From NCBI GenBank assembly GCA_963713615.1, contig CAVQMM010000001.1:2560001-2624000 (forward strand): DNA of 64,000 bases, given 5' to 3'. Positions within the stretch are counted from its first letter, which is position 1, and each line of letters starts with the position of its first letter. Origin of the DNA: an uncultured Chlamydiae bacterium (GTDB lineage: Bacteria > Chlamydiota > Chlamydiia > Chlamydiales > JAJFMA01). The position numbers and the translations under genes were made by a program. The notes beneath the pieces were generated by a model that did not search any database, had not been told where the DNA came from, and saw nothing but the letters and a program-made list of their open reading frames with translations. Of the stretch, positions 12,409-47,852 are shown one piece after another.

Positions 12409-13884
12409 TTACAGTAGGTAGGTGCGCCGTTGCTGGGCATTGCCGTAGCCCAGCTCCCCACGGTATTTTGCGATGGTACGCCGCGCGCACTTGATGCCAT
12501 GTTTGGTCATGAGATGGGAGATTGTCTCATCCGAAAGAGGCTTGCGTTTGTCTTCTTGTTCTACAATCCTACGCAATAGATCACGCGCTGTAGTGGATGA
12601 GACGTCATCTCCCTTCTCTGTTTCCAAAGCGCTCGTAAAAAACGAGCGCAATGGCAGCAAGCCTCGCGGGCTATTGAGATATTTGTTCGAAACGGCTCGT
12701 GCAATTGTACTCTCATGTAGCTCAAGTTCATCGGCTATGGTCCTCATCGTCAGAGGCACCAAATTGCCTTCGGCATGTAAAAAGAAGTCGGCTTGTCGAC
12801 GTGCGAGGCTTTGAGCTATCCGTAAAACCGTGTCGTTACGTTGACCGATCGTACGCATCAGCCATCTGGCTGAAGTAATTTTCTGCTTGATAAAGTCGGC
12901 TGTCTCGGAAGGTAATGTGGGATCCTCCAACATACGCATGTAGCGTCTATTCAGCCTAAATTGTGGGATCGGCTCATCATTGGTTTCAACGACTAACAAA
13001 TCTCCCTCTTTCTTGATAGTGACGTCCGGAACGATGTGTTGCACAGGGACTTGAGAATAGTATGCGCCAGGATGCAGGTCTAGCTTAACAACGTCCTGCT
13101 GAATCGTGCGAGAGACCTCATCCGAAGAATACCCTAGGTTTTTGGCAATGCTCGGAATGCGATTGTGCAGAAGATCATCGTAACACCGATTCACAATAGC
13201 GTAAGCTAACCCTCCTTGCTTTCCTTTTGTTGCTAGCTGGATTAGCAGCGATTCCTGTAGATTTACTGCAGCAACTCCCGGAGGATCAAATGTCTGAATC
13301 ACTTTGAGGATGCCAGTTAACGCCTCCTCATCATAACTGTAGAGAACCGCTAATTCCGAGAGATCTGAGCCCAAATAGCCATTTTCATCTAGCGAGCCTA
13401 TCAACGTTTCAGCCATCTGCAGGTCTGTAGGTTTCGCAAGACTTTCTCGTGCCTGACTCATAAGATGATCGAACAGAGTCTCCTGTTCACAGATAATGGT
13501 TTCCAAAAAGGTCTGACGCTTTTCATCTTCTGCTGTACGCCGCATGCCATAGTTCTCTGTTTCGGCAAAGTGATCGCGAAAGTCGTCATCTAGTTGCTTG
13601 AGAACTTCAAAATTTTGCTGTTCAAAGTCCATCTCTTTGTCTTCATTAGCTCCCCGGTCGTCATCGATCTCGCGGTTAAATGGAGAGTCTTCTTCATGAT
13701 CCTCGGAGTACTCGAGGACAGGATTTTGCTCCATTTCAAGCGCTACGAGGGTAGCCAGTTCCATGATGGGAACCTGCAGAAGCTGAATAGCTTGCTGCAT
13801 CTGAGGTAACATGATAAGACGCTGCGTCTGCTTCTGACTTTGGAGGGTTCTAGGATCCATTTTCATTGCCACTTGGTCAGCCAT
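12409..13884 (-). CDS. rpoN: RNA polymerase sigma-54 factor
   Basis: Gln/Leu-rich region I, HESTIARAV, RpoN box ARRTIAKYR. Confidence 0.97.
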   Translation of the reverse strand: MADQVAMKMDPRTLQSQKQTQRLIMLPQMQQAIQLLQVPIMELATLVALEMEQNPVLEYSEDHEEDSPFNREIDDDRGANEDKEMDFEQQNFEVLKQLDDDFRDHFAETENYGMRRTAEDEKRQTFLETIICEQETLFDHLMSQARESLAKPTDLQMAETLIGSLDENGYLGSDLSELAVLYSYDEEALTGILKVIQTFDPPGVAAVNLQESLLIQLATKGKQGGLAYAIVNRCYDDLLHNRIPSIAKNLGYSSDEVSRTIQQDVVKLDLHPGAYYSQVPVQHIVPDVTIKKEGDLLVVETNDEPIPQFRLNRRYMRMLEDPTLPSETADFIKQKITSARWLMRTIGQRNDTVLRIAQSLARRQADFFLHAEGNLVPLTMRTIADELELHESTIARAVSNKYLNSPRGLLPLRSFFTSALETEKGDDVSSTTARDLLRRIVEQEDKRKPLSDETISHLMTKHGIKCARRTIAKYRGELGYGNAQQRRTYLL

Positions 13885-14043
13885 GGTATGCCTCCCTAGA
13901 ATAGCGGATCTCTGTCTTCAGTATAGTCTTTACCGTCCACAATCACAAAAAAAATATTTTTTAGTTTCTTTTTCATTGAAGGCTAGGCAGTCCTGGCATA
14001 CAGTAAAATTTAGGGGGCGGCCACTAAATTGGCCTAGGTAATT

Positions 14044-16122
14044 ATGTCTACCATCACAGCAATTACAGATTCCCAAGCTCTAGCGGGGATAAAGTCCGGC
14101 CAGGCAAAACCAGCGGTTCTGCTCGTCGATGACGAACCATTGGTTTTAAAAGCACTGGAGAAGACGTTATTGGATCCACGCTTTGACCTCGTTATGGCTG
14201 AAGATGGTGCAGAGGCCTTAAAACTCATGCGCCAGAGGATGTTTGCGGTCATTATCTGTGATCAGCGCATGCCCGGGATAACCGGTGCCGAAGTTTTGCG
14301 TGAAGCCGTTAACATTCAAAGCCATGCCATCCGAATCCTGCTGACTGGCAGTGGAGACCTCAACACTGTCGTCCAAGCCATCAACGTGGGTCAGGCATCA
14401 CAGTTCGTCCTAAAACCCTGGGATGAAGCCTCATTGCGACAAACAGTAACGGGATGCGTCGAAAAGCACCTATTGCTGAAAGAAAACGACCGACTCCAGC
14501 AGCTGACCACGGCACAGCATGAGCAACTAGCCAAGGCCCACGATACCCTAAAACGTGAGCTAAAGCTGGGTGGGCGCATTCATGAGGTGATGCTGCTTGG
14601 ACGCGTTCCTGACAACATTCCCGGCCTTTCCATAGCAGCAGCGACGGTACCATCGCGAGATATCGATGGAGATTTCTTCGACTTCTTCCGGCCACTCCCT
14701 CAAATCTTTGATGTTGTCATCGGGGATGTGATGGGTAAGGGGATTCCTGCCGCGCTAGTAGGTACCGCTGTAAAAACCCAGCTAACCCGATTTGCCGTGC
14801 CGTTTAATCGTCTCCAAGTTTTCGATAAACACGGTATTTGGCGGGATGACGTCTTCAGTCCCCAAGAGATTTTGACGCGTGTTCAGAAGGAAGTGTCGCC
14901 TGCATTGATTGATTTAGAGTACTTTGCAAGCTTGTTTTATGGCCGCTTTGACTTGAAGCAAACGACCTTTACCTATGTAGACTGCGGCTCATCAAAACCC
15001 CTACATTACCGAGCAGCCCTCAAGCAAGCTACAGAGCTGCGAGGCGATAACTTCCCGGTCGGCGTATTGCCCTCGGAAACATTGACGTCGATCACAACGC
15101 GCTTTGACAGAGGAGACCTCTTCGTCTTTTACTCTGATGGAGTAACGGAAGCGCGTACCCCTACTGGTGAGCTCTTTGGCAGTGCTCGCCTCAAGGCTTT
15201 GGTGGAGCAAAATCATGACCTGACCGCTAATGAGCTCCTAGCTACCATTAAACGCACTGTCGTCACCTTCGCTGGTAAAGCGCAGTTTGACGACGATGTG
15301 ACCATCATCGTCGTACGGGTCGATAATACGTTGGTGCCTGAGTTCGCTAAACAAGCAACGGCCAAATTCAGTAGCGATCTTTCCCAAGCTAAGGCTGTGC
15401 GCGAATTTGTTCGAAGACTCTGTCTGCAAGCACCTGGAGATCGTGAACGTCTCGACCAAGAGCTCCAACTTGCAATCAACGAAGCCTTTTGTAATATTGT
15501 GATTCATGGCTACAAGCGAACAAAAGGCGAAATCATCCTCCGTGGCGAGCTTGGGGAAGAAGGGATTGTTTTGGAGCTTAGTGATCAAGGACCCGTATTC
15601 GACCCTTCCGCAGTGGCTGACCCCAGCTTCACGGGTGACCGAGATGATGGCTTTGGTTGGTATATAGTCAAAGAGATCGCCGACCGGGTTATCTACGCGC
15701 GCAAAGAGTCGGAGAAAGGGTGGAACCATCTAAAAATCTTTAAGAAATATCATTTAGAAGAGGGTAAGATGGAGATTTCGCATGATACCAAAGAAGGCAT
15801 CCTAATAGTGACACTAGAAGGCGAACACTTAGATGCCCGCGAGACGCCCTTCTTCAAACAGAAGGTCAACGACCTGTTGGAAGGCGAAAGCTGTAGCAGA
15901 GCGGTCTTTGATTTGCATAGACTTCAGTTCATAGACAGTTCGGGCTTAGGAGCCTTCCTGTCTATCCTCAAGACATTGCACAGCAAAGGTGGTGACCTTA
16001 AGCTATCTGGCATGAACAGAACCATCCGCACAATGTTTGAACTGGTATGCATGCATAAGATTTTCGAAATCTTTAATTCCCCAGAGGAAGCGTTACGTTC
16101 CTTCGAAATCTCCAGGCAGTAG
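14044..16122 (+). CDS. Fused REC - SpoIIE/PP2C phosphatase - anti-sigma kinase (HATPase) - STAS protein
   Basis: LLVDDEP, CDQRMP; GDFFDF, GDVMGKG, YSDGVTEA, DDVT; AINEAFCNIVIHG, GFGW; FIDSSGLG. Confidence 0.9.
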   Translation: MSTITAITDSQALAGIKSGQAKPAVLLVDDEPLVLKALEKTLLDPRFDLVMAEDGAEALKLMRQRMFAVIICDQRMPGITGAEVLREAVNIQSHAIRILLTGSGDLNTVVQAINVGQASQFVLKPWDEASLRQTVTGCVEKHLLLKENDRLQQLTTAQHEQLAKAHDTLKRELKLGGRIHEVMLLGRVPDNIPGLSIAAATVPSRDIDGDFFDFFRPLPQIFDVVIGDVMGKGIPAALVGTAVKTQLTRFAVPFNRLQVFDKHGIWRDDVFSPQEILTRVQKEVSPALIDLEYFASLFYGRFDLKQTTFTYVDCGSSKPLHYRAALKQATELRGDNFPVGVLPSETLTSITTRFDRGDLFVFYSDGVTEARTPTGELFGSARLKALVEQNHDLTANELLATIKRTVVTFAGKAQFDDDVTIIVVRVDNTLVPEFAKQATAKFSSDLSQAKAVREFVRRLCLQAPGDRERLDQELQLAINEAFCNIVIHGYKRTKGEIILRGELGEEGIVLELSDQGPVFDPSAVADPSFTGDRDDGFGWYIVKEIADRVIYARKESEKGWNHLKIFKKYHLEEGKMEISHDTKEGILIVTLEGEHLDARETPFFKQKVNDLLEGESCSRAVFDLHRLQFIDSSGLGAFLSILKTLHSKGGDLKLSGMNRTIRTMFELVCMHKIFEIFNSPEEALRSFEISRQ

Positions 16123-16179
16123 CCGCAGCTTATAGACTGGTTTGTATCTTTGCTCGCGCAGTGACGGGAGAATAATGGG

Positions 16180-16923
16180 ATGACGACGCGCACACCATTA
16201 ACGGGAGCAGCCCGGCAGCGACTCATCGCCGCACTTCATCGCCAGTATGTCGAAGGTCCCACAAAGCGGCACCGCTGGAAATACCTTGCGAAGGTATATG
16301 GGTGGGTGTTTGTCGTCACGGGCGCCAAAGCTATCAAGAGATGCAGCGATGTGATCGTATCAGTCATCCTATTAGTCATTCTTAGCCCCGCATTTCTGCT
16401 GATTGCTGGACTCATCAAAGCCACTGACAATGGACCGATCCTATACGTTTCACGCCGTATCGGCCGATGGGGCAAAGAGTTTCTATGTCCCAAATTCCGA
16501 TCCATGCATGTCGATGCCGAGAAGCGTAAAGCGGCCCTAGAAAGTAGTGAAGCATTTAAGGGTTCTGTCAGGTTCAAAATGAAGAGCGATCCCAGAATCA
16601 CGTGGATAGGAAATATCTTACGTAAAACGAGTATGGATGAACTCCCGCAGCTATGGTGCGTACTAAAAGGAGAGATGTCTTTGGTAGGACCGCGCCCCCC
16701 GCTACCTGAAGAAGTTGCCAAGTACACATTAGAAGAGCGTCGACGCCTCGATATCATCCCCGGACTCACTTGCTTCTGGCAAGTCAGTGGTCGATCGGAT
16801 ATCCCCTTTGACGAACAAGTGAAACTCGATTTACAGTACATTCAAAGTCAGAGCATCTGGGTGGACCTCAAAATCCTACTTAAAACCATTCCAGCAGTGA
16901 TTTTTGGGCGAGGAGCATACTAA
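16180..16923 (+). CDS. Initiating polyprenyl-phosphate sugar phosphotransferase (Bac_transf)
   Basis: KFRSM, DPRIT.IG..LRKTSMDELPQL, GEMSLVGPRP, PGLTCFWQVSGRS. Confidence 0.93.
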   Translation: MTTRTPLTGAARQRLIAALHRQYVEGPTKRHRWKYLAKVYGWVFVVTGAKAIKRCSDVIVSVILLVILSPAFLLIAGLIKATDNGPILYVSRRIGRWGKEFLCPKFRSMHVDAEKRKAALESSEAFKGSVRFKMKSDPRITWIGNILRKTSMDELPQLWCVLKGEMSLVGPRPPLPEEVAKYTLEERRRLDIIPGLTCFWQVSGRSDIPFDEQVKLDLQYIQSQSIWVDLKILLKTIPAVIFGRGAY

Positions 16924-16940
16924 CATTAGGGGAAAATGAC

Positions 16941-18398
16941 GTGAAAGCTGTACTTAATGCCACAGGCTACTGCTCCTCACTCACGCCACTCGTTCTGCGG
17001 CGTCCTACGCCTCTATTTCGCGTCGTCGATAAACCCATCATCGTGCATGTCATTGAATTTCTCGTTAGCAATGGGTTTTCTAAAATTGAACTCGTGCTAA
17101 GCCACTTGCCAGAAATGATCGAAGATGTCCTAGAGGAAGGCTCGCGTTGGGGTGTCAAAATCACCTATCACCTCACTAGAGACCCTAATAAACCTTTCGC
17201 TGTCCTCAGCCCCGTCTCCAGGGGTTGGAAGGATCATATCCTCCTCCTAGGACGCGCCGATGTGTTGCCCAACTTTGATCTACAAAAGCTCAAGAGTCCC
17301 AGCCACTTAAAGGCTACGCTATTGTATACAGCCAACGGCTGCTGGACCGGTTGGGGCCTACTTCCCGCCAGTGCATTGGGCAATATGCATATCGACGCCC
17401 CCTTCGATGCCTTGCCAGAGTCTATTGGAGAGCATAATCGGTTGACCACGAAGAGTTCTGAAATGGAAGCTCTTTCTTTTGCCGGATGGCAGCAGTCGAA
17501 CAATGAGCTGATTCAACGACGTACCTCCACAGCAGCCTTTCCCTCCACATCGCGGATGGTAGAACCGGGCATCTGGCTGTCGAGAGCGACGACCATTCAT
17601 CCCACCGCCATTATTACCCCTCCAGTCTTTATTGGGGATAACTGTCAGATCTTGGAAGGGGCAAGCATTGGCCCTAATACCGTTGTAGAGAATCACTGCA
17701 TCATCGACCGACAAAGTTTGGTTGAAAACTCCATCGTATGCCAAGAAAGCTACGTGGGACGTTCTTTAGAAATTCGCGACAGTGTGGTAGATCGCAATAC
17801 ACTGGTAAATCTGTCCCTGCAGACCTCGGTGATCATCCGAGATGATTTCATCTTGGCCCACCTGGCTCCACCGCCTCTAAGTCAGCAGATTTTTAATGGC
17901 GTGGAGCGCGTGACCGCCTTGCTGATTGTATTGGTACTAGCACCATTTTTACTGTTCTTCACGCTATTGTGGGGCTTAAAGTTCTCAAAAATGTTGCAGC
18001 TGCCCATCGAGCGAGAAAATGACCCATGGCCAACATTTCATTTTTATACCTTTGAAAGACCTGAAGGCAGAATCTCATCACGTATATGGAGACTGTTCCA
18101 ACACCTTCCGTCCCTCATCAATATTGTTCGTGGGGAGTTACATTTTGTAGGAGTCCACCCTATGACAGCCCTACAGCTAGAACGCATGCTCCCGGATTGG
18201 CAAAAGCTCTATCGCAAAACCAAAGTAGGCCTCATCACCCTCGCCGATGTGGACTATATGGGCTACCCATCGGACTCTGAACGCTTTGCATCCGAAACCT
18301 ATTATGCCGCCCACCAAAAAGTACGCTTTGATATTCATGTGCTCACTCGTTGGTTTGGACGCAAACTCTTCGGCGTCTTCAAAGCAGACTCAGAGTAG
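16941..18398 (+). CDS. Degenerate NTP-transferase + left-handed beta-helix + TM + sugar-transferase-like fusion
   Basis: P.PLFRVVDKPII, hexapeptide repeats (PPVFIGDNCQILEGASIGP), LPSLINIVRGELHFVGV; GTG start. Confidence 0.75.
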   Translation: MKAVLNATGYCSSLTPLVLRRPTPLFRVVDKPIIVHVIEFLVSNGFSKIELVLSHLPEMIEDVLEEGSRWGVKITYHLTRDPNKPFAVLSPVSRGWKDHILLLGRADVLPNFDLQKLKSPSHLKATLLYTANGCWTGWGLLPASALGNMHIDAPFDALPESIGEHNRLTTKSSEMEALSFAGWQQSNNELIQRRTSTAAFPSTSRMVEPGIWLSRATTIHPTAIITPPVFIGDNCQILEGASIGPNTVVENHCIIDRQSLVENSIVCQESYVGRSLEIRDSVVDRNTLVNLSLQTSVIIRDDFILAHLAPPPLSQQIFNGVERVTALLIVLVLAPFLLFFTLLWGLKFSKMLQLPIERENDPWPTFHFYTFERPEGRISSRIWRLFQHLPSLINIVRGELHFVGVHPMTALQLERMLPDWQKLYRKTKVGLITLADVDYMGYPSDSERFASETYYAAHQKVRFDIHVLTRWFGRKLFGVFKADSE

Positions 18399-18535
18399 GA
18401 GAGAGGAATTAAGATTAGAATCTTTTACCGCCGATAGTCTCACACCTTGTGAAAAAAAAGCTCTTTCAGCTAAAAGCCTGTAGAACATCATCAATAAGTT
18501 GCTATCATTATTTGAGCGAACTTTCGGGGTAGGCT

Positions 18536-20527
18536 ATGCACAAACTCATTCTGATCACTGCTTGGCTCACAGTTATCTGTGCGGCCATTGGCGGCACAGT
18601 CTGTTATCTGGCATATGAGGCCCAGAACAGACAGGAAAATGTCGATTATCGCGAGGTTGTAGCCCTACTCTCCGCGAAAAAGACCGATGAAGCACTGGAC
18701 ATCCTAAAACCTTACTCCAAAGACCTCTCAGTAACTCCTCCACAGGGTTTGGATTGGTTGCCGTTATTTATCGAAGCCTATCAACAAGCTGACAATGCTA
18801 CTGAGCTCGTAGCCCTCTATCTATCCTATCCGCGCGGCTTCGATAGCAATGAAGAAGCTACTCTCAAAGTAGCTGCAGCACTGCTGTCACAAAAAAAAGT
18901 TGACGACTTCTACCGTCTCGCCAGCAGCTGGCAGAACCGGCTGACAAAAGAGGCTGACTGGTTTGTCCTAGATGCCGATGCTCTATTGGTGGAAGGAAGA
19001 ATTAATGAAGCCCTGAAACTCTTGCAGTCCCGGGTGTTTGACGGCACTGAGGACAGTGGAAGGCTGATCCGTCTAGCCCTCATTCATGCTAAAGACAATC
19101 TTGCTGAATCCTGGAATATCCTCGGCGAAGCCTTGGAAAAAGATCCCACCAATGCCGATGTAACCACTTACCGCGCCCAAATCCTCGAAGCCATCCAAAA
19201 ACCTACTCTCGCACGTATCGAATATCTTAGCGCTATCCAGAAGGATCCTAGAAATCCTAGTCTCATCTACCAGCTCGGCGAGTTTTATCGTCGCAATGGC
19301 CACTATGAATTAGCATTAAACGCCTGGAGTCAGGGTCTCGATCTCCCTCACAGTGAGGAACTATGGCTAGCGACTCTCTTCTGGTCGAAGATGACATCGC
19401 CAATGAAATCTCAGCCTGCCGCAACACCACCCAAAAACAGTGCATTGTCACCACTCATTACTTACCTACATCAGTTGCCAGCAGATCATTTTTGGAATGA
19501 TGTCGCGTTTGATGCTCTTCCTGAAGCCGCTACGTACCTCAAGACGCGTCAAGAAACTTTCTGGCTACGGCTCGCTAACGCACTGGCCCAGAGCGATGAA
19601 GCACACGCTGCTGAGTTGCTGGATTTCAATACATTCCATAACACCAGCTGGTCTCCACAGCTACAGCTAGCATTACAACAAATTTTGGCATACCGCCGCT
19701 ATGGGATCCTACACATTGATGAGGTCAGTCCACCTAATCAAGATAATTCCTTAGCCGAGGAAGACTCTGCAACTCGCTCCTGGCCTCCGCATCAGCTATT
19801 CAGAACATTACAGACTTTGGCACAGAAAACGCCCGCTGGCCTGCCCGCCCAAGATGTCCCCTTGGATATCCAAGCGCTCCTTAATAGCAGACTAGCTTTT
19901 CCAGCCGCCTTCCTCGCCAGCGGCTGGTTAGAGGCGGCTCTGACCTTTCCCGTTCCGCGCGTAGTCCCCGAAGACTTTCCAGGATGGGTCTCGTTTGCCT
20001 ATACACAGGCCATCCGCTACGGCCGTAGCCCTCTAGAAGCGCTTAATTTCGCTACTCGGCAAACACCTAATCAACCCCTGACGTTATTGACCGGCGAACT
20101 CATGATCAGCACAGGTAGCCCAGATGCTGGCATCGAACAACTGAAACCCCTCACAGGCAACTATAATGAGATCGGCGTCCGTGCCGCTTGGCTCATCAGC
20201 CAGGTCAATTTAGATCGTAAGGACTTCCAAGCTGCCCAAGACACCGTAATGCAACATCCTATGCTATCTCGACATGTCGTAGGCAAGGAGACCCTAGCGC
20301 GTATCGCCCTTCAGCAAGGAGATATCGCCCAGGCTGATACCCTCTACGGTAAGATCGAAAAAGAGTCTTTAGAAGCGAGATTCTATCTGGCCCGCCGAGC
20401 CCTATCAGAGAAAAAATGGGACTTGGCTAGAAGACTCACTGAACAACTCGTGATTGAATACCCCGATAACCAACAACTACATAGAGACCTACAACGTCTG
20501 CGGGTCTTAACTGAAGAAGGATCATAA
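18536..20527 (+). CDS. N-terminally anchored TPR protein (paralog 1)
   Basis: N-terminal TM and TPR-like helices; shares WFVLDAD, QLxEFYRRxG, FWLRL and GELxISxGSPDAG with 22478-24658. Confidence 0.8.
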   Translation: MHKLILITAWLTVICAAIGGTVCYLAYEAQNRQENVDYREVVALLSAKKTDEALDILKPYSKDLSVTPPQGLDWLPLFIEAYQQADNATELVALYLSYPRGFDSNEEATLKVAAALLSQKKVDDFYRLASSWQNRLTKEADWFVLDADALLVEGRINEALKLLQSRVFDGTEDSGRLIRLALIHAKDNLAESWNILGEALEKDPTNADVTTYRAQILEAIQKPTLARIEYLSAIQKDPRNPSLIYQLGEFYRRNGHYELALNAWSQGLDLPHSEELWLATLFWSKMTSPMKSQPAATPPKNSALSPLITYLHQLPADHFWNDVAFDALPEAATYLKTRQETFWLRLANALAQSDEAHAAELLDFNTFHNTSWSPQLQLALQQILAYRRYGILHIDEVSPPNQDNSLAEEDSATRSWPPHQLFRTLQTLAQKTPAGLPAQDVPLDIQALLNSRLAFPAAFLASGWLEAALTFPVPRVVPEDFPGWVSFAYTQAIRYGRSPLEALNFATRQTPNQPLTLLTGELMISTGSPDAGIEQLKPLTGNYNEIGVRAAWLISQVNLDRKDFQAAQDTVMQHPMLSRHVVGKETLARIALQQGDIAQADTLYGKIEKESLEARFYLARRALSEKKWDLARRLTEQLVIEYPDNQQLHRDLQRLRVLTEEGS

Positions 20528-20533
20528 ACATTC

Positions 20534-20863
20534 ATGAAGCTCAAGACTCTATTGATCAGCCCATTATTCCTATCACTCGCTACCTGTCTGAACGCGACAG
20601 AACTCGCTTCGGATACCCCAAGTCCAGGTCATCATGGACAGCTCCTGCTGGCTCGCCGCGAAGCGATTGCTAATAACCTAAACCTACTCTATGACCGTAA
20701 TACTCGCGCAGATAGACAACGACAAGACCGTCGAGAGTACTACCGCTCCCGTCTGCAGACACGAAACTCTTGTTCCAAATGTCAACCTACTGAGGACCAA
20801 GCAATTGACGATACCGTAAGCGAACAACCCCCTACCCAAAGCGATACCACGCACGTGGTATAG
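20534..20863 (+). CDS. Small secreted hypothetical protein
   Basis: Signal peptide; LLLARRE...LLYDRN; a CxxC motif. Confidence 0.65.
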   Translation: MKLKTLLISPLFLSLATCLNATELASDTPSPGHHGQLLLARREAIANNLNLLYDRNTRADRQRQDRREYYRSRLQTRNSCSKCQPTEDQAIDDTVSEQPPTQSDTTHVV

Positions 20864-20959
20864 AGGGTCCGATCATTTAAATGTAAGAAAGCAGGAGACT
20901 AAAAAAAGGCAAAAAGATCTATAAGGGGGATAAGGAAGACATCAACCCGAGGAGCGACT

Positions 20960-21574
20960 ATGTCTATGAATTATTTGGCTTCCCTAGTCCTTCGGCTACC
21001 CTTTGCCACCGCGGTGGCTGCAGGATGCCTCCTCGCCACCTCAGGTATCGCTGATGACGATGCGATACAAAATCCCCTGATGGATGATGCCCAATCGTAC
21101 GATTTTTCGCTCAAAGATTATGACCTAACAACACCCGGGGAAAGTCTTGGTCTGAATCCAGGAGAAACTCTGGCGGATAGGGGTCAAAGTTTCTATGACC
21201 GCAATCAACACCAGAGATCTTCAAATAACCCCAGTAGCAGCAACTGGCAAAGAAGCCAGAATAGTCAAAGTTCGGATTCCCGCGACCGAAGAAGTTCATA
21301 CGACAGCTATTACCAAAGAAACGGCAATAGTACCTACCGAGACAACGATTACCGCAACAGGAACAACAACACCAACCAGAACAACAGCGACAGCGGTGGT
21401 GGATACAACCAGTACCAGTACTATCCATATGAATATGAGCGCGGAATATCACGTCAATACCAGGACGGACGCATACCCTACTACCGATCCCGCGAGTACC
21501 CGAGTACTTATGGGTCCAGGAGTGTGGAACAAGCCACGTCTCCGAATGCTAAATACTACTGGGGAGGACGATAA
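20960..21574 (+). CDS. Secreted N/Y/S/R-rich low-complexity protein
   Basis: RBS GAGGAG; hydrophobic N-terminus; TLADRGQSFYDRNQ followed by N/Q/Y/S/R tracts. Confidence 0.7.
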   Translation: MSMNYLASLVLRLPFATAVAAGCLLATSGIADDDAIQNPLMDDAQSYDFSLKDYDLTTPGESLGLNPGETLADRGQSFYDRNQHQRSSNNPSSSNWQRSQNSQSSDSRDRRSSYDSYYQRNGNSTYRDNDYRNRNNNTNQNNSDSGGGYNQYQYYPYEYERGISRQYQDGRIPYYRSREYPSTYGSRSVEQATSPNAKYYWGGR

Positions 21575-21613
21575 ACCTCTCTTTCTAAAGTAATTGCAAA
21601 ATAGGGAATTCTT

Positions 21614-21880
21614 ATGAAAAAGCATATAGCAAGCTTTCTTTGTGTCCTTTTTTGTGCTCCGGCCATCTATCTCCTGGCCCACGATGACGATTTTCATAAC
21701 CAGGATCTGCTGTATGACCGCCAACAGCGGGAATGGCAACAGAACGAGTATGAATCGGGACGGAATCAACCCCAATTTGATGCCTATTACCACCACAATG
21801 ACTACCCCGGTTCGCGCGGAAGTAACTACTACAACGACTCCAATTACAACTACGACGGGGACCCATATAACGGGTACTAA
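21614..21880 (+). CDS. Small secreted Y/N/D-rich protein
   Basis: Signal peptide ending LLA, then HDDDFHNQDLLYDRQQ and a Tyr/Asn-rich tail. Confidence 0.7.
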   Translation: MKKHIASFLCVLFCAPAIYLLAHDDDFHNQDLLYDRQQREWQQNEYESGRNQPQFDAYYHHNDYPGSRGSNYYNDSNYNYDGDPYNGY

Positions 21881-21925
21881 CAGAAAAAGAACGGTTCTTG
21901 TGAAGCATTGGGGGGCGCTTTGGAA

Positions 21926-22162
21926 TCACAAATCGTCACTCGGCGCGAAGCGCTTTGGAGTGCGGTCGCTAGCGATCGCTTTTCGTTCCTTACGATGGTC
22001 ATGTGAAACGGCATCACTATCATTCGATGCAGAATAGGGAGGATTACATCGGACAGGGGCAAGGGCACGCACACGGGCACGAAGAAGCCTCTTTAGCGTT
22101 ACTTTTGGATATTGGCGACGCAGTCGGTTGGGGCTCCAAAGCGCGCCGAGATACGATTGTGA
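21926..22162. repeat. Degenerate/chimeric family B element
   Basis: Left part is the reverse complement of 12240-12332. The interior contains GGGCACGCACACGGG as in the 62341 element. Ends CGCGCCGAG.TACGATTGTGA. Confidence 0.7.
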
Positions 22163-22477
22163 GTCAAGAAAAAGATGTGTGCAACACTATGACATAGGAC
22201 GTTGATTAGGGCTCCAAAGGCTACGCGCCAATTGATTATTTTGAGGTCCTAAAGCATTAGGTCTGTTTATGCATTCCAATAAATTTGGGTTTGTGTCAAA
22301 AAAGACTTGTACCACAATCAGCTCCCGCGATTCAACGATCGCAAACGAGTCAATATTGGAAATATGGACCCGATTGGGATCGTTGAATCCCGGGGCTTTG
22401 GCGCGGTCCAAATTCGATGTTCAGGCGGACTGTGGTATGGGCGTCGCGTTCAATGTTGACTGAGGGAGAGAGTATTC

Positions 22478-24658
22478 ATGCGCAAATTTATTATTATCGC
22501 CGTATTTTTGATCGTCATCGTCGGCGGAGCTACAGGCCTTTTTTTTCGTCACCAAATCTACAACTATCTCACAAGTGAACGCTACTCGCCAGAACAAGAG
22601 AAGAAAGATATCGCCACAGCAGAAGGCCTACTGAAAGATAGCAAGCCTCAGGAAGCTCTGGATATCATACAGAAATATCAGGAACGCTTTGTTCAAAAAG
22701 GCCCTATTCCCCGTAAATGGGTAGACCTCTTCATTAAGGGATCCCTAGCCGCTGGAGAGCCCGAGAATATTTACTTCTTATATGAACAATATCCTCATGC
22801 AATCAATGGCAATGAAGAAGCCGCGCTGATCGTCGCTGATATTCTCATCAAAAGTGGTAAGGCAAACGACTACCTTCAGCTACGTGAACAATGGAAAAAT
22901 AAAGAAGGCAAGCCAGCCAATTGGTTCGTTCTTGATGCTGACAAAGCTCTCGTCGATGGAGATCGCGCTGCTGCCCTCAAACTATTGAATTCCCGATCCT
23001 TCGAAGGTGCCGACGACGTTCCTCGCCTAGTACGTCTCGCCTTCCTCAGTGTGGACGAAAATCCGCGGCTGACCTGGGAATACCTGACAGAGGCATATCA
23101 GAAAGATCCCAAGAACGCTGAAGTGCGTTCCTACCGAGCACGACTTCTAGAAGCCGTGGACAGGACAGCTCTAGCACTCTCTGAATATGTGGCGGCAGCG
23201 AGCCTAGATCCTAAAAATCCCGCTATGAGGGACCAACTCGCAGAGTTTTACCGCCGTCATGGACGCTACAACCTAGCGCTCAAAGTTTGGGAAGATGCCC
23301 TGGAATTCCCCAACGCCGATTCTATATGGATCAAGGCATGGTTTTGGAGCAAGGTAGCTACGCCAGTCGATTTCAAGTGGAGCGATAAGAAAATCCCACC
23401 CGGTGAACTACAGCCCTTCGTGGAATACCTGGTAAGCCTGAAATCTGATCAATTCTGGGATACGGCAAAATTTGAAGCCATACCCAACTCCAACCGTTAT
23501 CTGCAAACCGAGCAGGCAACCTTTTGGTTGCGCCTCATCCAGCAGCTTAAGGATGGCCAGCAAGATAAGGCCTGGGAACTCATCTTATACAATAGCTTCA
23601 GCCCCGTCAGTTGGAATCCTGAGCTTGAAGAGATGCTCAAGCGTGTCTTAGCCTATCGCAGAACAGGCTCTCTAGCTTTCAATGAAGACACCACTAAGCC
23701 AAACGCCACCAATAACCCCTCCAAGTCAGCCAGTGATATCGCCAATCAAGCGACCAAAGATGCCTCTACAAGCGTTGTAAACAGCGCTTCTACACCACCT
23801 GACGACACAACCCAGAAACCTGCTGGGCTGGCATCAATCAAAAATCAGCATCCCTTTTACCTACAGATTCAGGAATTAGGAGCCAAGGCTGATCAACCCG
23901 GAGCCAAGGTGGATATTCCACCAGACCTTCAGAAGCTCATGACCGGCAAAGACGCCTTCTCGGCGTGTTTCTTAGCCGGAGGCTGGCTAGAAGCAGCCCT
24001 AGACCTGAATACAAGCAAAGTTCTTCCTGAGGATGCCCCTGAGTGGCTAGCCTATGGCCTCACGCAAGCTATTCGATATAACCGTGGTACGTTGCCAGCC
24101 TTGGAGTTTGCCACACAGCAAAAACCTTCGCCTTCTCTGACGATGCTTACTGGAGAACTTCTGATCTCTAGTGGGAGCCCTGACGCCGGCCTCGAGAAGC
24201 TCATCACACTGGTGAGTAGAAACGACGATGTTGGCTTCCGCTCGGCTTGGCTTGTTACCCTTCTCTATATCGAACGAAAGCAATATGAGGATGCTAAGAA
24301 GATCATTGAAAGTCATCCTCGTTTGGCCAACGATATCGTGGGAAAAGAAGCCCTTGCCCGCATTGCACTACTCGAAGGCAAAACGGAGGAAGCTGATAAG
24401 CAGTACAGCGATCTCGAAAATGACTCTTGGGAGGCGAAGTCCTACCTAGCCCGCAAGGCCTTCGATAATAAAGACTGGCAACGCGCCAAGGAGCTAACTG
24501 AGATGCTGTTACAAGAGTTCCCGAACAACACTCTGATTCAGCAAAACTATGAGAAAATTATTGAACAACAGGCCAAAGAAAATGGCCCACAAGGTTCCAC
24601 CAGCCCAGAGCAGAAGCCAGTACAAGCACAGCCTCTAAACACCAAGGGATCACAGTAA
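22478..24658 (+). CDS. N-terminally anchored TPR protein (paralog 2)
   Basis: As for 18536-20527; RBS GAGGGAG. Confidence 0.8.
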   Translation: MRKFIIIAVFLIVIVGGATGLFFRHQIYNYLTSERYSPEQEKKDIATAEGLLKDSKPQEALDIIQKYQERFVQKGPIPRKWVDLFIKGSLAAGEPENIYFLYEQYPHAINGNEEAALIVADILIKSGKANDYLQLREQWKNKEGKPANWFVLDADKALVDGDRAAALKLLNSRSFEGADDVPRLVRLAFLSVDENPRLTWEYLTEAYQKDPKNAEVRSYRARLLEAVDRTALALSEYVAAASLDPKNPAMRDQLAEFYRRHGRYNLALKVWEDALEFPNADSIWIKAWFWSKVATPVDFKWSDKKIPPGELQPFVEYLVSLKSDQFWDTAKFEAIPNSNRYLQTEQATFWLRLIQQLKDGQQDKAWELILYNSFSPVSWNPELEEMLKRVLAYRRTGSLAFNEDTTKPNATNNPSKSASDIANQATKDASTSVVNSASTPPDDTTQKPAGLASIKNQHPFYLQIQELGAKADQPGAKVDIPPDLQKLMTGKDAFSACFLAGGWLEAALDLNTSKVLPEDAPEWLAYGLTQAIRYNRGTLPALEFATQQKPSPSLTMLTGELLISSGSPDAGLEKLITLVSRNDDVGFRSAWLVTLLYIERKQYEDAKKIIESHPRLANDIVGKEALARIALLEGKTEEADKQYSDLENDSWEAKSYLARKAFDNKDWQRAKELTEMLLQEFPNNTLIQQNYEKIIEQQAKENGPQGSTSPEQKPVQAQPLNTKGSQ

Positions 24659-24662
24659 ATCG

Positions 24663-25472
24663 ATGAAGGTTAAAGATTACGCCTTCCTAGGCGCTTTAGG
24701 CCTATTGGCTATCTTTGTCTGGCTGCGAGACCGACTATGGATGTCCTCAGCAGAGGACACCCTGCCTATATTGGTAGCATTGCCGGTTTTCTTTTGGTTA
24801 GGAAGACCTTGGCATATTCTAGAAGCGCCTTTTCATTTATCCACTAAGGCAGTGGCTGCTAGCGTTATTTTGTTTCTTTTCGGCATCGTCGCTGAAAGCA
24901 CCCTTCTAATGGCTATAGGGTGGACCTTGCTTCTGTGGTCGTGGCTTAAGGTGCGTACACCTCCTGCAGACCAGAGTGACCTTAAAAAGTTATTGATACT
25001 TCCGTTGATGTCCTTCCCTTGGATTACGCTGGATATGCAAACCGTGGGATGGTACTTCAGACTTTCAGGAGCTTGGGTAACAGCACATTTTTTCTCTCTC
25101 TTAGGCTTCCCAGTCAAGTGGGAAGGTACCACTATCCTGATTGATAAGATGCCCATCTCCGTAGAAGCCGCCTGTGCAGGGCTCAATACTCTCCAGAGTA
25201 TGCTAATAGCAGGAACCGTGGTGGCCTTTGTGATCCTAGGACGCACAAATCGCTACTGGCCCAACCTATTAGTTCTAATTTTGATGGCATGGCTTGCCAA
25301 TACCTTCCGCATTGTGGTCATTAGCGCTGTTGCGTTGACATTTGGTCGAGATTTCGCTCTTGGAGCCTTCCACCAATGGGGCGGCTGGTTCATCTTGGTA
25401 TTAATGTTTGTAATGTGTTGGCTATTGTTTGAACTACAGGCTCCTAAAGTAGCACCTAAGCCGAAAACATGA
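24663..25472 (+). CDS. Exosortase/archaeosortase family protein
   Basis: About 8 TM segments; catalytic-triad motifs VEAACAGL (Cys), LANTFRI (Arg), FHQWGGW (His). Confidence 0.85.
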   Translation: MKVKDYAFLGALGLLAIFVWLRDRLWMSSAEDTLPILVALPVFFWLGRPWHILEAPFHLSTKAVAASVILFLFGIVAESTLLMAIGWTLLLWSWLKVRTPPADQSDLKKLLILPLMSFPWITLDMQTVGWYFRLSGAWVTAHFFSLLGFPVKWEGTTILIDKMPISVEAACAGLNTLQSMLIAGTVVAFVILGRTNRYWPNLLVLILMAWLANTFRIVVISAVALTFGRDFALGAFHQWGGWFILVLMFVMCWLLFELQAPKVAPKPKT

Positions 25473-25939
25473 TCAAAAAAGCAAGTTTACCAAAACCTAT
25501 TGAAATTGCGGTCCTAGGCTACTGCCTTTGGCAAGCTACCGATCTGGTACGCTCTTGGCTTACAGCTCCAGCGGAAAGATGGGCTTGGATCGCTTTTTTT
25601 ATCTGGTGCATTCCTGTCATTTGGTACCTAGCTATCACCATCCAAGAGCAGCAAATCAAACAATCAACGCCTATTCTTCTTGGTGCAGCGATTGTCGTTG
25701 CCCTCGTCGGTGGCTTAGGGTCTCTGAATATCTTGGGACACATCGGATTAGCTCTGGCGTTGGCGGGCATGCTTCCATTTCGCTGGGAAATCCTTGTCTG
25801 GTTAGCCACGGCGCTGTCTTGGTTGCCCAGTTTTGGGTGGATGATTAAAAGTCTTCCCTTTGCAATTATTCCCATCATCCAAATAGGGTTAGCCTTATTC
25901 GGAAGCGCCTTTTTGTTGTACTGTTGGCGGAGGTCCTAA
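25469..25939 (+). CDS. Small multi-TM protein (exosortase-associated)
   Basis: ATGA overlap with the exosortase; Trp-rich, about 5 hydrophobic segments. Confidence 0.7.
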   Translation: MIKKASLPKPIEIAVLGYCLWQATDLVRSWLTAPAERWAWIAFFIWCIPVIWYLAITIQEQQIKQSTPILLGAAIVVALVGGLGSLNILGHIGLALALAGMLPFRWEILVWLATALSWLPSFGWMIKSLPFAIIPIIQIGLALFGSAFLLYCWRRS

Positions 25940-26622
25940 TATGCAACAGACCGGTCGTACAATAGCACTATGGATAGGGCTAGCTGTGGCGGTAGTCCTG
26001 GGGCTTCTATGGCAATTCGCACCTTTAACAGACGCCAAGAGCAGGCTGCAGGCCCTTCCCTTGAATGGCCCTAGTTTTATTGGTCAAGATATCGCTCTTT
26101 CCGATTGGGAAAAAGGCTATTTTAAAAATGTCAATGTTCTCAAACGCGTCTACACCATCGGTAAGAAGACGTTGTTTGTCACAGCGTTAGATGGAACGCT
26201 AAATCGCCACGTGGTTCACGATCCCCTATATTGCTTCCGAGGCAGTGGCTATGAGGTCGCTAGCGAAAAAACTATCGATCTGCCAGATGGTGGCTCCGTC
26301 GCTTTCTTAAAGTTGATTAAGAACAATTCAGAACAAGATGCCATGTATTGGTTCACAAATGGCCAGACAACGTACGATAGCCCCTTACGCTATTGGTGGC
26401 AGGCAACTCTGCGACGCCTCACGCTAGGCATGTCTGGGAAAGAGCCCATTTTGATCGTCGTTCAGCCCATTGACGACCACCCTCTCGACTGGAAAGAGGT
26501 CGTGCACTACTTCCCTCAGCTTCTCACGCTATAAAAAGCTTCACAAACGCTCTAGGCTTATCTTTCAATGCTTTAAGATCTCACAATCGTGTTGAATCGT
26601 TTTCTTCGTTTTGTAAATGTCC
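25534..26622 (+). repeat. Left copy of ~1.09-kb direct repeat (partner 39724-40812)
   Basis: Base-by-base match at offset 14190; only four differences seen in the core (25849, 25876, 26099, 26439), more at the edges. Confidence 0.95.
25941..26534 (+). CDS. Exosortase-associated EpsI-like protein
   Basis: N-terminal TM, HDPLYCFRGSGY (H.P..C..G.G motif), YWF; downstream of the exosortase. Confidence 0.75.
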   Translation: MQQTGRTIALWIGLAVAVVLGLLWQFAPLTDAKSRLQALPLNGPSFIGQDIALSDWEKGYFKNVNVLKRVYTIGKKTLFVTALDGTLNRHVVHDPLYCFRGSGYEVASEKTIDLPDGGSVAFLKLIKNNSEQDAMYWFTNGQTTYDSPLRYWWQATLRRLTLGMSGKEPILIVVQPIDDHPLDWKEVVHYFPQLLTL

Positions 26623-26678
26623 ATAATTTCCATAAAGTCCATTTATACTGTGGCGAGAATGCACAACATGGACACTAT

Positions 26679-27004
26679 GAGGTAATTGCAAAATTATTTG
26701 AGCCCTTAAGGATCGATTCTTAGGAAAAAAGGTTACCCTCTTTTGCGAGAAGGCGACGCTATAAAGCTCAGATGGCATGCCACCATCTAGTCTGGAAAGA
26801 CAGGCTTTTCTCCCCTCCCAGGCCCGAAGGGTCGATATTGCAACAGGCCATGGCATCGCCATGGTATATGCCAAAACTGTTTTAGCAGCCTGTAGGGCTG
26901 CCATAAAGCGCATGCATAAATGGTGTGTGTAAGCCGACGCCTTATGGCATCCCTACGAGGCTGCTAAATCCATTTCTGACATATACCGTGGCGATGCATG
27001 GCCA
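26679..27004. mobile_element. Truncated family A MITE-like copy abutting the CRISPR array
   Basis: Starts GAGGTAATTGCAAAATT after ...ACAACATGGACACTAT; the second arm is degenerate and ends at the first CRISPR repeat. Confidence 0.8.
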
Positions 27005-27007
27005 AAT

Positions 27008-29591: not shown

Positions 29592-29605
29592 ATCATTCCC
29601 TAGTA

Positions 29606-31341: not shown

Positions 31342-31364
31342 AGCTATATGCCTTGTATGGATAT

Positions 31365-31404: not shown

Positions 31405-31430
31405 CGTTGACGTTGATGTCTGCGGATTCT

Positions 31431-32315: not shown

Positions 32316-32319
32316 GAAT

Positions 32320-34721: not shown

Positions 34722-34732
34722 TGATTTCCCTC

Positions 34733-39723: not shown

Positions 39724-40129
39724 AGTTACCGATCCGGTATGCTCTTGGCTTACGGCTCCAGCGGAAAGATGGGCTTGGATCGCTTTTTTTATCTGGTGCA
39801 TTCCTGTCATTTGGTACCTAGCTATCACCATCCAAGAGCAGCAAATCAAACAATCAACGCCTATTCTTCTTGGTGCAGCGATTGTCGTTGCCCTCGTCGG
39901 TGGCTTAGGGTCTCTGAATATCTTGGGACACATCGGATTAGCTCTGGCGTTGGCGGGCATGCTTCCATTTCGCTGGGAAATCCTTGTCTGGTTAGCCACG
40001 GCGCTGTCTTGGTTGCCCAGTTTTGGGTGGATGATTAAGAGTCTTCCCTTTGCAATTATTCCCATAATCCAAATAGGGTTAGCCTTATTCGGAAGCGCCT
40101 TTTTGTTGTACTGTTGGCGGAGGTCCTAA
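39724..40129 (+). pseudogene. 5'-truncated duplicate of the 25469-25939 membrane protein gene
   Basis: Identical protein from SWLTAPAERW onward; lacks the first ~22 codons. Confidence 0.8.
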
Positions 40130-40130
40130 T

Positions 40131-40724
40131 ATGCAACAGACCGGTCGTACAATAGCACTATGGATAGGGCTAGCTGTGGCGGTAGTCCTGGGGCTTCTAT
40201 GGCAATTCGCACCTTTAACAGACGCCAAGAGCAGGCTGCAGGCCCTTCCCTTGAATGGCCCTAGTTTTATTGGTCAAGATATCGCTCTCTCCGATTGGGA
40301 AAAAGGCTATTTTAAAAATGTCAATGTTCTCAAACGCGTCTACACCATCGGTAAGAAGACGTTGTTTGTCACAGCGTTAGATGGAACGCTAAATCGCCAC
40401 GTGGTTCACGATCCCCTATATTGCTTCCGAGGCAGTGGCTATGAGGTCGCTAGCGAAAAAACTATCGATCTGCCAGATGGTGGCTCCGTCGCTTTCTTAA
40501 AGTTGATTAAGAACAATTCAGAACAAGATGCCATGTATTGGTTCACAAATGGCCAGACAACGTACGATAGCCCCTTACGCTATTGGTGGCAGGCAACTCT
40601 GCGACGCCTCACGCTAGGCATGTCTGGGGAAGAGCCCATTTTGATCGTCGTTCAGCCCATTGACGACCACCCTCTCGACTGGAAAGAGGTCGTGCACTAC
40701 TTCCCTCAGCTTCTCACGCTATAA
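40131..40724 (+). CDS. Second copy of the EpsI-like protein
   Basis: 197 aa, identical to 25941-26534 except one K->E change (GMSGEEP). Confidence 0.8.
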   Translation: MQQTGRTIALWIGLAVAVVLGLLWQFAPLTDAKSRLQALPLNGPSFIGQDIALSDWEKGYFKNVNVLKRVYTIGKKTLFVTALDGTLNRHVVHDPLYCFRGSGYEVASEKTIDLPDGGSVAFLKLIKNNSEQDAMYWFTNGQTTYDSPLRYWWQATLRRLTLGMSGEEPILIVVQPIDDHPLDWKEVVHYFPQLLTL

Positions 40725-46957: not shown

Positions 46958-46959
46958 CT

Positions 46960-47829: not shown

Positions 47830-47852
47830 TATCTCACCGCTTTGGCTAATTC

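Follow-up and report, generated by a model that had tools for sequence, protein, structure and literature searches.

The window analysed here, a stretch of 64,000 nt, carries eleven plus-strand open reading frames (ORFs) that run divergently from rpoN between positions 14044 and 26534 (Table 1). An earlier note had listed them as a regulator, sugar transferases, TPR proteins, small proteins, an exosortase, a transmembrane (TM) protein and an EpsI-like protein, and all eleven were found in place and in that orientation. The adjacency of rpoN and the regulator recurs in stretches fetched from G006, G026, G384, G236 and L088. A recent duplicate of the end of the run (8 mismatches over 1007 bp against 25534-26540) is followed by convergent genes, which belong to the original locus because their counterparts directly face EpsI in G001, G003 and G004. 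The core ORFs are all intact with a GC content like that of the genome, and near-identical contigs from peat metatranscriptomes, in which DNA carry-over is possible, span several of the locus genes; contig starts lie at 21593 and 21598, just before s3. The host is very likely a chlamydia when three features are taken together: a Chlam_OMP6 match (E 7e-7; 31.3, slightly under the cut-off of 34.1) that is absent from 14 controls, exosortases of same-order genomes bearing the source labels Parachlamydiales and Chlamydiales, and an ORF at 61849 that we take to be EUO-like.

Table 1. Features of the exosortase locus and its flanks (window positions).
Feature	Position	Strand	Evidence or remark
rpoN (sigma-54)	12409..13884	-	TIGR02395 392.9 bits (cut-off 277)
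Receiver-PP2C(SpoIIE)-HATPase_c_2-STAS partner-switch fusion	14044..16122	+	Pfam
Initiating polyprenyl sugar-phosphate transferase (Bac_transf)	16180..16923	+	PF02397 218.8 bits
NTP_transferase/hexapeptide/C-terminal Bac_transf fusion	16941..18398	+	Pfam
TPR1, N-terminal membrane segment	18536..20527	+	TPR protein
s1, small predicted-secreted polar protein, LYDRN motif	20534..20863	+	Hydrophobic N-terminus; without TM-basic tail
s2, small predicted-secreted S/Y/N/R-rich protein, FYDRN motif	20960..21574	+	Hydrophobic N-terminus
s3, small predicted-secreted Y/D/N-rich protein, LYDRQ motif	21614..21880	+	Hydrophobic N-terminus
TPR2, N-terminal membrane helix, without catalytic domain	22478..24658	+	AF2: all-helical TPR-like solenoid
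Exosortase, unnamed subfamily, C171/R216/H237	24663..25472	+	PF09721 90.5 bits (cut-off 25.7); TIGR04178 46.5 (cut-off 23)
156-aa TM protein, unnamed family	25469..25939	+	No Pfam or NCBIfam match
EpsI-like protein	25941..26534	+	PF11984 37.8 (cut-off 26.1)
Recent duplicate: 5'-truncated TM gene and intact EpsI gene	39724..40724	+	Beyond CRISPR-Cas island; tblastn
GT4, GT2, nucleotidyltransferase-like and phosphodiesterase-like genes, convergent	44643..48983	-	Pfam

The exosortase passes both family models, and its C171, R216 and H237 are invariant in 53/53 aligned relatives, and in 52/52 alignment rows they coincide with the C/R/H of an annotated XrtD, XrtB and xrt, in agreement with the Cys/Arg/His triad proposed earlier. 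It is the only exosortase over cut-off in the genome (99.1% complete), and its family membership suggests that it cuts target proteins. Among the 16 NCBIfam families that it matches, no named subfamily cut-off was passed (XrtA, B, C, D, N, Q, S, T, V and W, cyanoexosortases, archaeosortases and TIGR02602 were tried); the best scores and their cut-offs were 56.5/105.55 for TIGR02602, 53.2/208 for XrtA, 49.1/313 for XrtV and 21.4/300 for XrtC. The idea of a distinct subfamily in a host-associated lineage thus stood as to the subfamily but not as to its confinement, since the same enzyme type and cassette occur in records labelled with free-living groups (labels found: Verrucomicrobiae, Lentisphaeria, Planctomycetota and Syntrophus).

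The cluster is conserved in relatives: a TPR gene lies directly upstream of the exosortase gene in 22/22 loci from 21 relatives, and EpsI with the TM gene is present in 17 of these 22. Natural fusions join the parts in several ways, as exosortase-TM (P0195, P0263), TM-EpsI (P0232, P0238, P0287) and exosortase-TM-EpsI (P0280). The family of the 156-aa TM protein, with 483 representatives, is elsewhere fused to exosortase and/or EpsI, and the protein weakly resembles the N-terminal 100 aa of the exosortase (hhalign probability 55%, E 1e-4). The EpsI-like protein scores 22.3 bits with TIGR02914, under the cut-off of 42.8, and among NCBIfam models it best matches XrtO and XrtN, in their C-terminal parts. 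TPR1 shares 39.5% identity with TPR2 and is an old paralogue of it. The AF2 model of TPR2 has a pLDDT of 85.5, and its sole Foldseek matches are generic TPR solenoids; neither TPR protein passes the PrsT model (TIGR02917, cut-off 312), with scores of 64.9 (TPR1) and 55.

No PEP-CTERM tail lies within the window, as had been noted, but this does not extend to the genome, in which a motif scan recovered 12 canonical (V/A/L)PEP-TM-basic tails, all outside the window, and TIGR02595 gave nine matches over cut-off. The sorting signal, which the earlier note had called unknown, is ordinary, because twelve likely targets with the standard tag are encoded elsewhere in the genome; this is an outcome that the note itself had named as refuting its reading. 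Eleven of them have 209-355 aa and one is a 72-aa remnant, with an N-terminal signal (judged by eye) and the PEP-TM-basic tail; three (C1:41060, 42040 and 1165504), scored over their full length, stay under the Pfam PEP-CTERM cut-off. When 69 targets of this genome and its relatives are pooled, the tail consensus is (V/I/A)PEP-x-T-Y-hydrophobic-RRRK, and the mature parts contain 17% Ser+Thr and 7.8% Asn, compared with 12% and 3.9% genome-wide. Known PEP-CTERM families account for several of the targets (THxN, 140 bits with a cut-off of 85; choice-of-anchor A, K and N), and a matrixin-like protease and an adhesive-domain protein are among them. A PEP-CTERM gene stands immediately 5' of the TPR gene in 6/22 chlamydial loci and 8/9 loci of the non-chlamydial clade.

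The small proteins s1-s3 could suggest another reading, in which the exosortase would recognise some novel signal other than PEP, such as one on these neighbours. Consistent with it are the failure of all named subfamily cut-offs, the confinement of the LYDR-type motif to the locus (3/83 short polar signal-bearing ORFs in the genome, namely s1, s2 and s3), and the fact that LYDR proteins occupy the slot held by a PEP-CTERM gene in other lineages. Among short polar signal-bearing ORFs, the motif occurs in 11/21 in cassette loci versus 0/7 in control loci, by a pattern derived from most of the sequences counted, with only L113 and L119 as new finds; the small proteins are in this sense a recurring part of cassette loci, as the earlier note held, and s2 (32%, E 1e-20) and s3 have orthologues in G001. 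Nevertheless, s1-s3 have no C-terminal TM-basic tail and carry the motif within the first half of the mature chain, LYDR proteins adjoin the cassette in only 7/21 relatives and 0/9 non-chlamydial loci, no second common tail emerged among 33 candidates in a genome-wide C-terminal scan, and canonical targets are present in all 22 exosortase-positive genomes found. A non-PEP signal is therefore very improbable.

The glycan side of the system is carried by Bac_transf, GT2 and GT4 genes in the window and by a further EPS locus (C1:2725596-2738691) with Wzx, two Wza, a Wzc-like protein and Wzy_C. The earlier reading of an exosortase and surface-glycan locus in a chlamydia is supported. Comparison of exosortase-positive with exosortase-negative genomes, which include kin and are hence non-independent samples, gave Wza matches (E<1e-11) in 21/21 versus 1/23, the NTP-transferase/sugar-transferase fusion in 21/21 versus 0/23, and the receiver-SpoIIE-HATPase-STAS protein, likely the regulator of this glycan arm, in 21/21 versus 3/23. 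No sigma-54 -24/-12 site was found in the gap between rpoN and the regulator or just 5' of any gene in the run. By a pattern fixed after this genome's sites had been viewed, 10/69 targets have a site within 300 bp upstream (7/57 without this genome) and 59/69 lack one, against a background of 12/1409 genes with free upstream DNA (~1%), a shuffle mean of 0.26 and none on the reverse strand. Among cassette-adjacent targets 6/22 have a site, which in G343, G375 and G189 heads the cassette-adjacent PEP gene. PrsK, PrsR and PrsT orthologues were not found over cut-off in the genome: TIGR02916, scored only on the kinase beside the activator, gave 90.5 (cut-off 300), and the best genome-wide TIGR02915 score was 402.5 (cut-off 502.6).

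According to the part of the C. trachomatis study available (PMC12282069), sigma-54 is bound only late, so the layer may arise when cells convert to elementary bodies and may form a coat on them. The sigma-54 sites ahead of a minority of the targets lend this coat indirect support, whereas the ChIP-defined regulon of just two genes in C. trachomatis counts against it. It is quite conceivable, at somewhat under even odds, that the product is instead a matrix of loose EPS or of floc type, or a layer that faces the host during intracellular growth. Such a layer would involve the same sorting mechanism and differ only in timing and purpose. PEP-CTERM proteins of free-living bacteria tie EPS to cells and form flocs (PMC9850573, in the sections available), most targets here are without a sigma-54 site, and the protease and adhesive protein among them would suit a matrix. 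The strong enrichment of sigma-54 sites and their position at the head of the cassette-adjacent PEP gene point the other way, as does the description of the elementary body, in the portion of PMC9816063 consulted, as the only extracellular chlamydial form.

Exosortase was found in 20/401 chlamydial genomes (~5%, about 1 in 20). In a 61-genome set, again with kin among the samples, 13 genomes have exosortase, 15 PEP-CTERM and 12 both; the 13th exosortase genome, G034, has a match of 16.3 bits. Targets occur in 9/9 further exosortase-positive genomes, giving PEP-CTERM matches in 22/22 (one marginal), whereas a real PEP-CTERM ORF is present in 1/48 exosortase-negative genomes of the set and none of the five small-genome f36 members scored passed the PEP-CTERM cut-off. 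No exosortase was found in G032, which does carry the regulator, a strong Wza match and, on a contig of 2.6 kb, a PEP-CTERM gene. Was the cluster recently acquired by horizontal transfer, or is it decaying as a relic? The spread is patchy, with at least 7 changes on the RpoB tree, a CRISPR island and the duplication break up the locus, and one target is truncated. The intact core ORFs, genome-like GC and metatranscriptome contigs speak against this origin, and so do the trees: inside the family, those of exosortase and TPR branch in the same order as RpoB, and the one for TPR largely matches that of RpoB overall, recovering the family pairs f17, f21, f38 and part of f32. The exosortase tree lacks resolution at depth, and outgroup rooting places the root inside this genome's family. 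Import or decay thus seems most unlikely, and the cassette appears to have passed down vertically in chlamydiae, with many losses.

We consider it likely, with a probability of roughly 0.82, that this environmental chlamydia has a PEP-CTERM/exosortase core in which a single exosortase processes the 12 targets and a surface layer of polysaccharide or glycoprotein comes from the linked sugar genes. After export, the targets would stay anchored in the inner membrane through their PEP-TM-basic tails, and the exosortase would cleave them at the PEP motif through its triad, probably forming a single unit together with the 156-aa TM protein and EpsI, as the fusions suggest. The adjacent membrane-anchored TPR solenoid may serve as a periplasmic scaffold in a PrsT-like role. 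The glycan would be made by Bac_transf, the NTP-transferase fusion, the glycosyltransferases and the distant Wzx/Wza x2/Wzc/Wzy-like locus, and part of the targets would depend on sigma-54 for their transcription, presumably along with the sole AtoS/AtoC-like pair of the genome. The cassette represents an unnamed subfamily common to free-living PVC bacteria and chlamydiae. A far more speculative proposal, which we regard as unlikely, is that an old PVC-type TPR-exosortase-TM-EpsI machine was kept through endosymbiosis in one environmental chlamydial branch, wired to late sigma-54, and builds a glycoprotein-polysaccharide elementary-body coat for survival outside the host; the exosortase would be multi-part with a non-catalytic half-copy partner, TPR solenoids would bind a second, tail-less cargo (LYDR) and deliver it to the coat, and the small-genome (pathogen-sized) lineage would be without the module.

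That ~5% of chlamydial genomes carry this module, whole and co-inherited, suggests that some chlamydiae bear a layer of glycan and protein on their surface that is missing from the well-studied ones, and it provides named candidate genes and promoters for elementary-body persistence outside hosts. The analysis defines an unnamed exosortase subfamily, a partner family and a small motif-defined protein family; there is no new sorting signal, and the unusual part is an enzyme subfamily that may coat the infectious cell form. Our literature search found no paper describing a chlamydial exosortase, PEP-CTERM or EPS system. In the sections available of PMC1569441 and bioRxiv 2023.06.07.544157, PEP-CTERM systems are described as a trait of free-living bacteria from sediment, soil and biofilms that known pathogens lack; the former does not mention chlamydiae in those sections, whereas the host here belongs to an obligate endosymbiont phylum.

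The PEP-CTERM/EpsH (exosortase) system of Haft et al. 2006 (PMC1569441, as far as available), with XrtA and XrtB types, EpsI and PrsK/PrsR/PrsT, shares with the chlamydial system a Cys/Arg/His exosortase, an adjacent EpsI-like protein, EPS genes, a TPR protein, dispersed and diverse Ser/Thr/Asn-rich PEP-TM-basic targets (12 here, median 8 there) and sigma-54 sites ahead of some targets, at 14% here compared with 99/167 with a regulatory box in Proteobacteria. It differs in that the chlamydial enzyme passes no named subfamily cut-off, PrsK and PrsR are absent, and the cassette is fixed as TPR-exosortase-TM-EpsI with the extra 156-aa membrane protein; unlike PrsT, the chlamydial TPRs have an N-terminal membrane segment, lack a conserved Cys and score far under the PrsT cut-off. 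Fused exosortases with C-terminal extensions (XrtD, XrtN, XrtO, XrtT) resemble the exosortase-TM-EpsI fusions of this subfamily, although scores are far under their cut-offs (e.g., 43.4 versus 250) and the targets here are many, with plain VPEP tails rather than VPLPA or VPDSG. In the floc locus of Aquincola tertiaricarbonis, an RpoN-dependent pepA lies upstream of prsT (PMC9850573, sections available), and the same arrangement of a sigma-54 promoter and a PEP-CTERM gene 5' of a TPR gene is seen in G343, G375, G189, L089, L093 and L099, with another TPR family and exosortase subfamily, whereas in the present genome the slot before TPR2 holds the tail-less LYDR proteins.

Eleven co-directional open reading frames, divergent from rpoN, make up the run described in the earlier note, and all are present as claimed. 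The exosortase scored 90.5 bits against PF09721 (cut-off 25.7) and 46.5 against the family signature TIGR04178 (cut-off 23), and it fell below cut-off for the other 15 NCBIfam exosortase/archaeosortase models matched. As no named-subfamily model passed in this HMM classification, the enzyme is outside every named exosortase subfamily, in keeping with the distinct subfamily proposed earlier. Residues C171, R216 and H237 are invariant in every one of the 53 homologues that were aligned out of 120 listed, and the triad aligns with those of annotated XrtD, XrtB and a Nitratidesulfovibrio exosortase. Its AlphaFold2 model is a confident, multi-helix structure (pLDDT 91) for which fold searches against solved structures gave no match at E≤0.001 and none at Z≥8. 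The window spans C1:2560001-2624000 of the host genome (G000; 3.97 Mb, 99.1% complete). That genome has no second exosortase over cut-off, and a single-protein search of genome contigs returned one uninformative match of 15 residues to an actinobacterial record. Another genome, G343, has two exosortases of this subfamily on its contigs C6 and C1 (loci L117 and L118), each preceded by a TPR gene and a PEP-CTERM gene.

What, then, does this enzyme process? The earlier note saw no PEP-CTERM substrate in the window and supposed an unknown sorting signal, a view that it set against the outcome of a genome-wide tail search. TIGR02595 identified nine tails above cut-off in G000, none of them within the window. 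Among 16,812 ORFs a motif scan picked out 136 loosely, and 12 of these proved on inspection to end in a PEP-TM-basic tail. Eleven of these 12 targets have 209-355 aa and a hydrophobic N-terminus; the remaining one is a remnant, probably a broken gene, whose family is full length in relatives. Among 61 genomes, exosortase was above cut-off in 13, PEP-CTERM in 15 and both in 12, and the thirteenth exosortase genome has a marginal 16.3-bit PEP-CTERM match. No PEP-ending ORF was found in two of the PEP-only genomes (G017 and G036), and the third has a genuine PEP-CTERM gene on a 2.6-kb contig. Targets are also carried by all nine exosortase-positive genomes newly found in a phylum sample, in a scoring that left out G062. 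A set of 69 targets, drawn from a subset of matches, shares (V/I/A)PEP-x-T-Y-hydrophobic-RRRK and is enriched in Ser, Thr and Asn, and some of the 32 targets scanned belong to known PEP-CTERM families. Since canonical tails accompany the exosortase in G000 and in its exosortase-positive relatives, the supposed new signal was rejected and we consider it very improbable; the exosortase most likely processes canonical PEP-CTERM targets (probability roughly 0.8, judged from sequence).

Coordinates of the features discussed
Feature	Location	Content
Metatranscriptome contig ends	window 13896-13900	12-16 bases upstream of rpoN start codon
Flagged run	window 14044-26534 (+)	Regulator to EpsI-like gene
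s1, s2, s3	window 20534-20863, 20960-21574, 21614-21880	Small LYDR proteins
Exosortase	window 24663-25472	
Direct repeats	window 25534-27015, 39724-41150	~1.45 kb each
CRISPR island	window 27008-39700	CRISPR array (32 exact repeats), cas genes, two further ORFs
Tandem unit	window 40813-43362	~455 bp, non-coding; 228-bp internal palindrome (86% arms)
Glycan genes	window 44643-48983	GT4, GT2, nucleotidyltransferase-like, phosphodiesterase-like
Sigma-54-headed targets	G000 C1:41-43 kb	Two targets
EPS locus L190	G000 C1:2725596-2738691	Wzx, two tandem Wza, Wzc-like, GtrA/PMT-like, Wzy_C, GT4
L027	G000 C1:3270815-3271744	PEP-CTERM target with matrixin (M10) peptidase domain
L029	G000 C1:3670760-3670978	72-aa PEP-CTERM remnant
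L028	G000 C1:3796658-3797725	PEP-CTERM target, choice-of-anchor A / ice-binding-like adhesive domain
Insertion in G001	L013:3053-9785	1672-aa ORF and short repeated ORFs
Sigma-54 activators	L093:4863-6230, L112:5698-7128	Non-chlamydial; no receiver-domain match

The gene cluster is conserved in relatives: all 22 loci, drawn from 21 of them, place a TPR gene immediately upstream of the exosortase, with TM and EpsI genes downstream in 17, two TPR paralogues in eight and a PEP-CTERM gene upstream of TPR in six. TPR likewise precedes the exosortase in 24 of 28 metagenome loci, and the other four start within the exosortase gene. Nine loci and the homologous protein P0100 form a separate branch (support 92/92, in a tree that left out three metagenome rows, two duplicates and one partial) labeled Verrucomicrobiae, Lentisphaeria, Planctomycetota and Syntrophus, a taxonomy outside chlamydiae that rests on four source labels and Atlas 'commonest phylum' rows; eight of the nine loci have a PEP-CTERM gene ahead of TPR. 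Locus L107, which nests among chlamydial rows in two trees, was left unassigned.

The family of the 156-aa TM protein has 483 representatives, and the 150 listed include Xrt-TM, TM-EpsI and Xrt-TM-EpsI fusions, which argue that exosortase, TM protein and EpsI would function as one working unit. A weak likeness of the TM protein to the exosortase N-terminus (probability 55%) is a possible lead only. TPR2 was modeled as a purely helical solenoid after an N-terminal membrane helix, and its fold search matched generic solenoids only; TPR1 and TPR2 score 55-65 bits against a PrsT cut-off of 312, and TPR2 may at most be PrsT-like in role. In a genome of the same genus (G001), an insertion separates TPR1 from the small proteins.

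These small proteins, s1-s3, have no C-terminal sorting tail and share the motif [LF][YF][DEN][RVQ][NDEQ] (consensus LYDRN). Among 83 short, polar, signal-bearing ORFs of G000 only three have it, namely s1-s3 themselves; in cassette loci (584 kb) it occurs in 11/21 such ORFs against 0/7 in control loci (487 kb), the motif having been derived from most of the sequences counted. LYDR proteins adjoin TPR genes in 7/21 relatives and one metagenome locus, and none were found in the non-chlamydial loci. At a best guess, s1-s3 may be secreted and serve as accessory proteins of the coat or as ligands of the TPR proteins.

The cassette travels with a glycan arm. The NTP/Bac_transf fusion is present in 21/21 exosortase-positive against 0/23 negative genomes, the partner-switch fusion in 21/21 against 3/23, and Wza matches at E<1e-11 in 21/21 against 1/23; the genomes are kin and were selected by exosortase status, so these counts reveal a module inherited together and should not be read as independent trials. 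In G000 an EPS locus lies ~140 kb away, and in non-chlamydial locus L093 homologues of the G000 Wza/Wzc genes adjoin the cassette. In genome G032 the partner-switch fusion, a strong Wza match and, on a contig of 2.6 kb, a PEP-CTERM gene were found, but neither exosortase nor NTP fusion; the module may have been lost in part there, a contig may be missing, or binning may have added noise.

A CRISPR island, accompanied by a duplication of 1.45 kb, parts further glycan genes in the window from EpsI. Its cas genes, by appearance, we take to be type I-C, and its flanking direct repeats differ by 8 mismatches in their first 1007 bp. Since EpsI directly faces the phosphodiesterase/GT genes in G001, G003 and G004, the island is read as a recent insertion with duplication. 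Pieces of the tandem unit match 225 sites (~65 kb) in G000, and 7 of these matches exceed 700 bp; none was found in the relatives' loci compared. The unit resembles a miniature mobile or REP-like element.

No -24/-12 site was found ahead of the flagged-run genes. At the targets, TGGCA-N7-YGCH, a pattern shaped by the G000 sites, lies within 300 bp of 10/69 targets, or 7/57 without G000; the background is 12/1409 G000 genes with free upstream DNA (3 of the 12 being targets), and controls gave 0.26 for shuffles and 0 for the reverse strand. The pattern also precedes 6 of the 22 targets next to cassettes, a set that overlaps the 69 by one. A search upstream of targets for a shared enhancer-like k-mer returned AT-rich words only. 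PrsR and PrsK orthologues were not found in G000, whose single sigma-54 activator scores best as AtoC and lies beside an AtoS-like kinase. In L093 and L112, activators divergent from a cassette-heading PEP-CTERM gene are candidate dedicated activators. In C. trachomatis, sigma-54 is reported to be bound late only, at two genes only, with consensus TGGCACAATTTTCGCT (PMC12282069), and an earlier study ties sigma-54 to membrane remodelling at conversion (PMC7482065). Target sites and this literature give the only, and indirect, support for an elementary-body role; for an elementary-body timing of the coat the odds are roughly even.

Peat metatranscriptome contigs, with identities of mostly 99-100%, match parts of rpoN, the regulator, TPR1, TPR2, s2 and s3, with low depth at the exosortase, and also cover both sigma-54-headed targets; these are assembled contigs in which DNA carry-over is possible and gaps say nothing on silence. 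Contigs from three studies end just upstream of the rpoN start codon, which weakly suggests that a transcript ends there.

How did this system come to its present distribution? In the phylum sample, exosortase occurs in 20/401 genomes, and in 0/30 of family f36, whose listed genomes are 1.0-1.2 Mb and, judged by that size, may be Chlamydiaceae. Within G000's family, branching order is the same in the exosortase, TPR and RpoB trees. The TPR tree also recovers the pairs of families f17, f21 and f38 along with the G274/G375/G189 group; like RpoB, it sets G034 and G046 outside. On the RpoB tree (without G006, G299 and G384, which have no usable rpoB), 17/19 positive genomes share one branch (97) with 11 negatives, and exosortase presence needs at least 7 changes. 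This tree agreement and concentration of positives fit old vertical descent with repeated loss. Deep branches of the exosortase tree are weakly supported and its outgroup root is unreliable, so the trees do not discriminate between descent from a PVC ancestor and one old transfer as the possible origin. The label 'Nitrosomonas sp.' of homologue P0007 was set aside, as P0007 groups with G002 (support 99). Exosortases of same-order genomes are labeled Parachlamydiales and Chlamydiales, and G000 has an OmcB-like Chlam_OMP6 match just below cut-off; together these make a chlamydial host very likely.

No description of a chlamydial PEP-CTERM/exosortase system was found in the open literature, a search covering few subscription papers, and PMC9816063 mentions neither in its main text and one supplement, though its large data tables could list the family. 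This analysis adds the definition of the cassette with its fusions, its occurrence in records of free-living PVC bacteria, an enrichment of sigma-54 sites at targets, the agreement between the trees, and the family of LYDR proteins. The system is not a member of the PrsKRT set. The features tested place it within the PEP-CTERM/exosortase kind, and it would work alike, as that kind is described in Haft 2006 (PMC1569441), PMC9850573 and bioRxiv 2023.06.07.544157.
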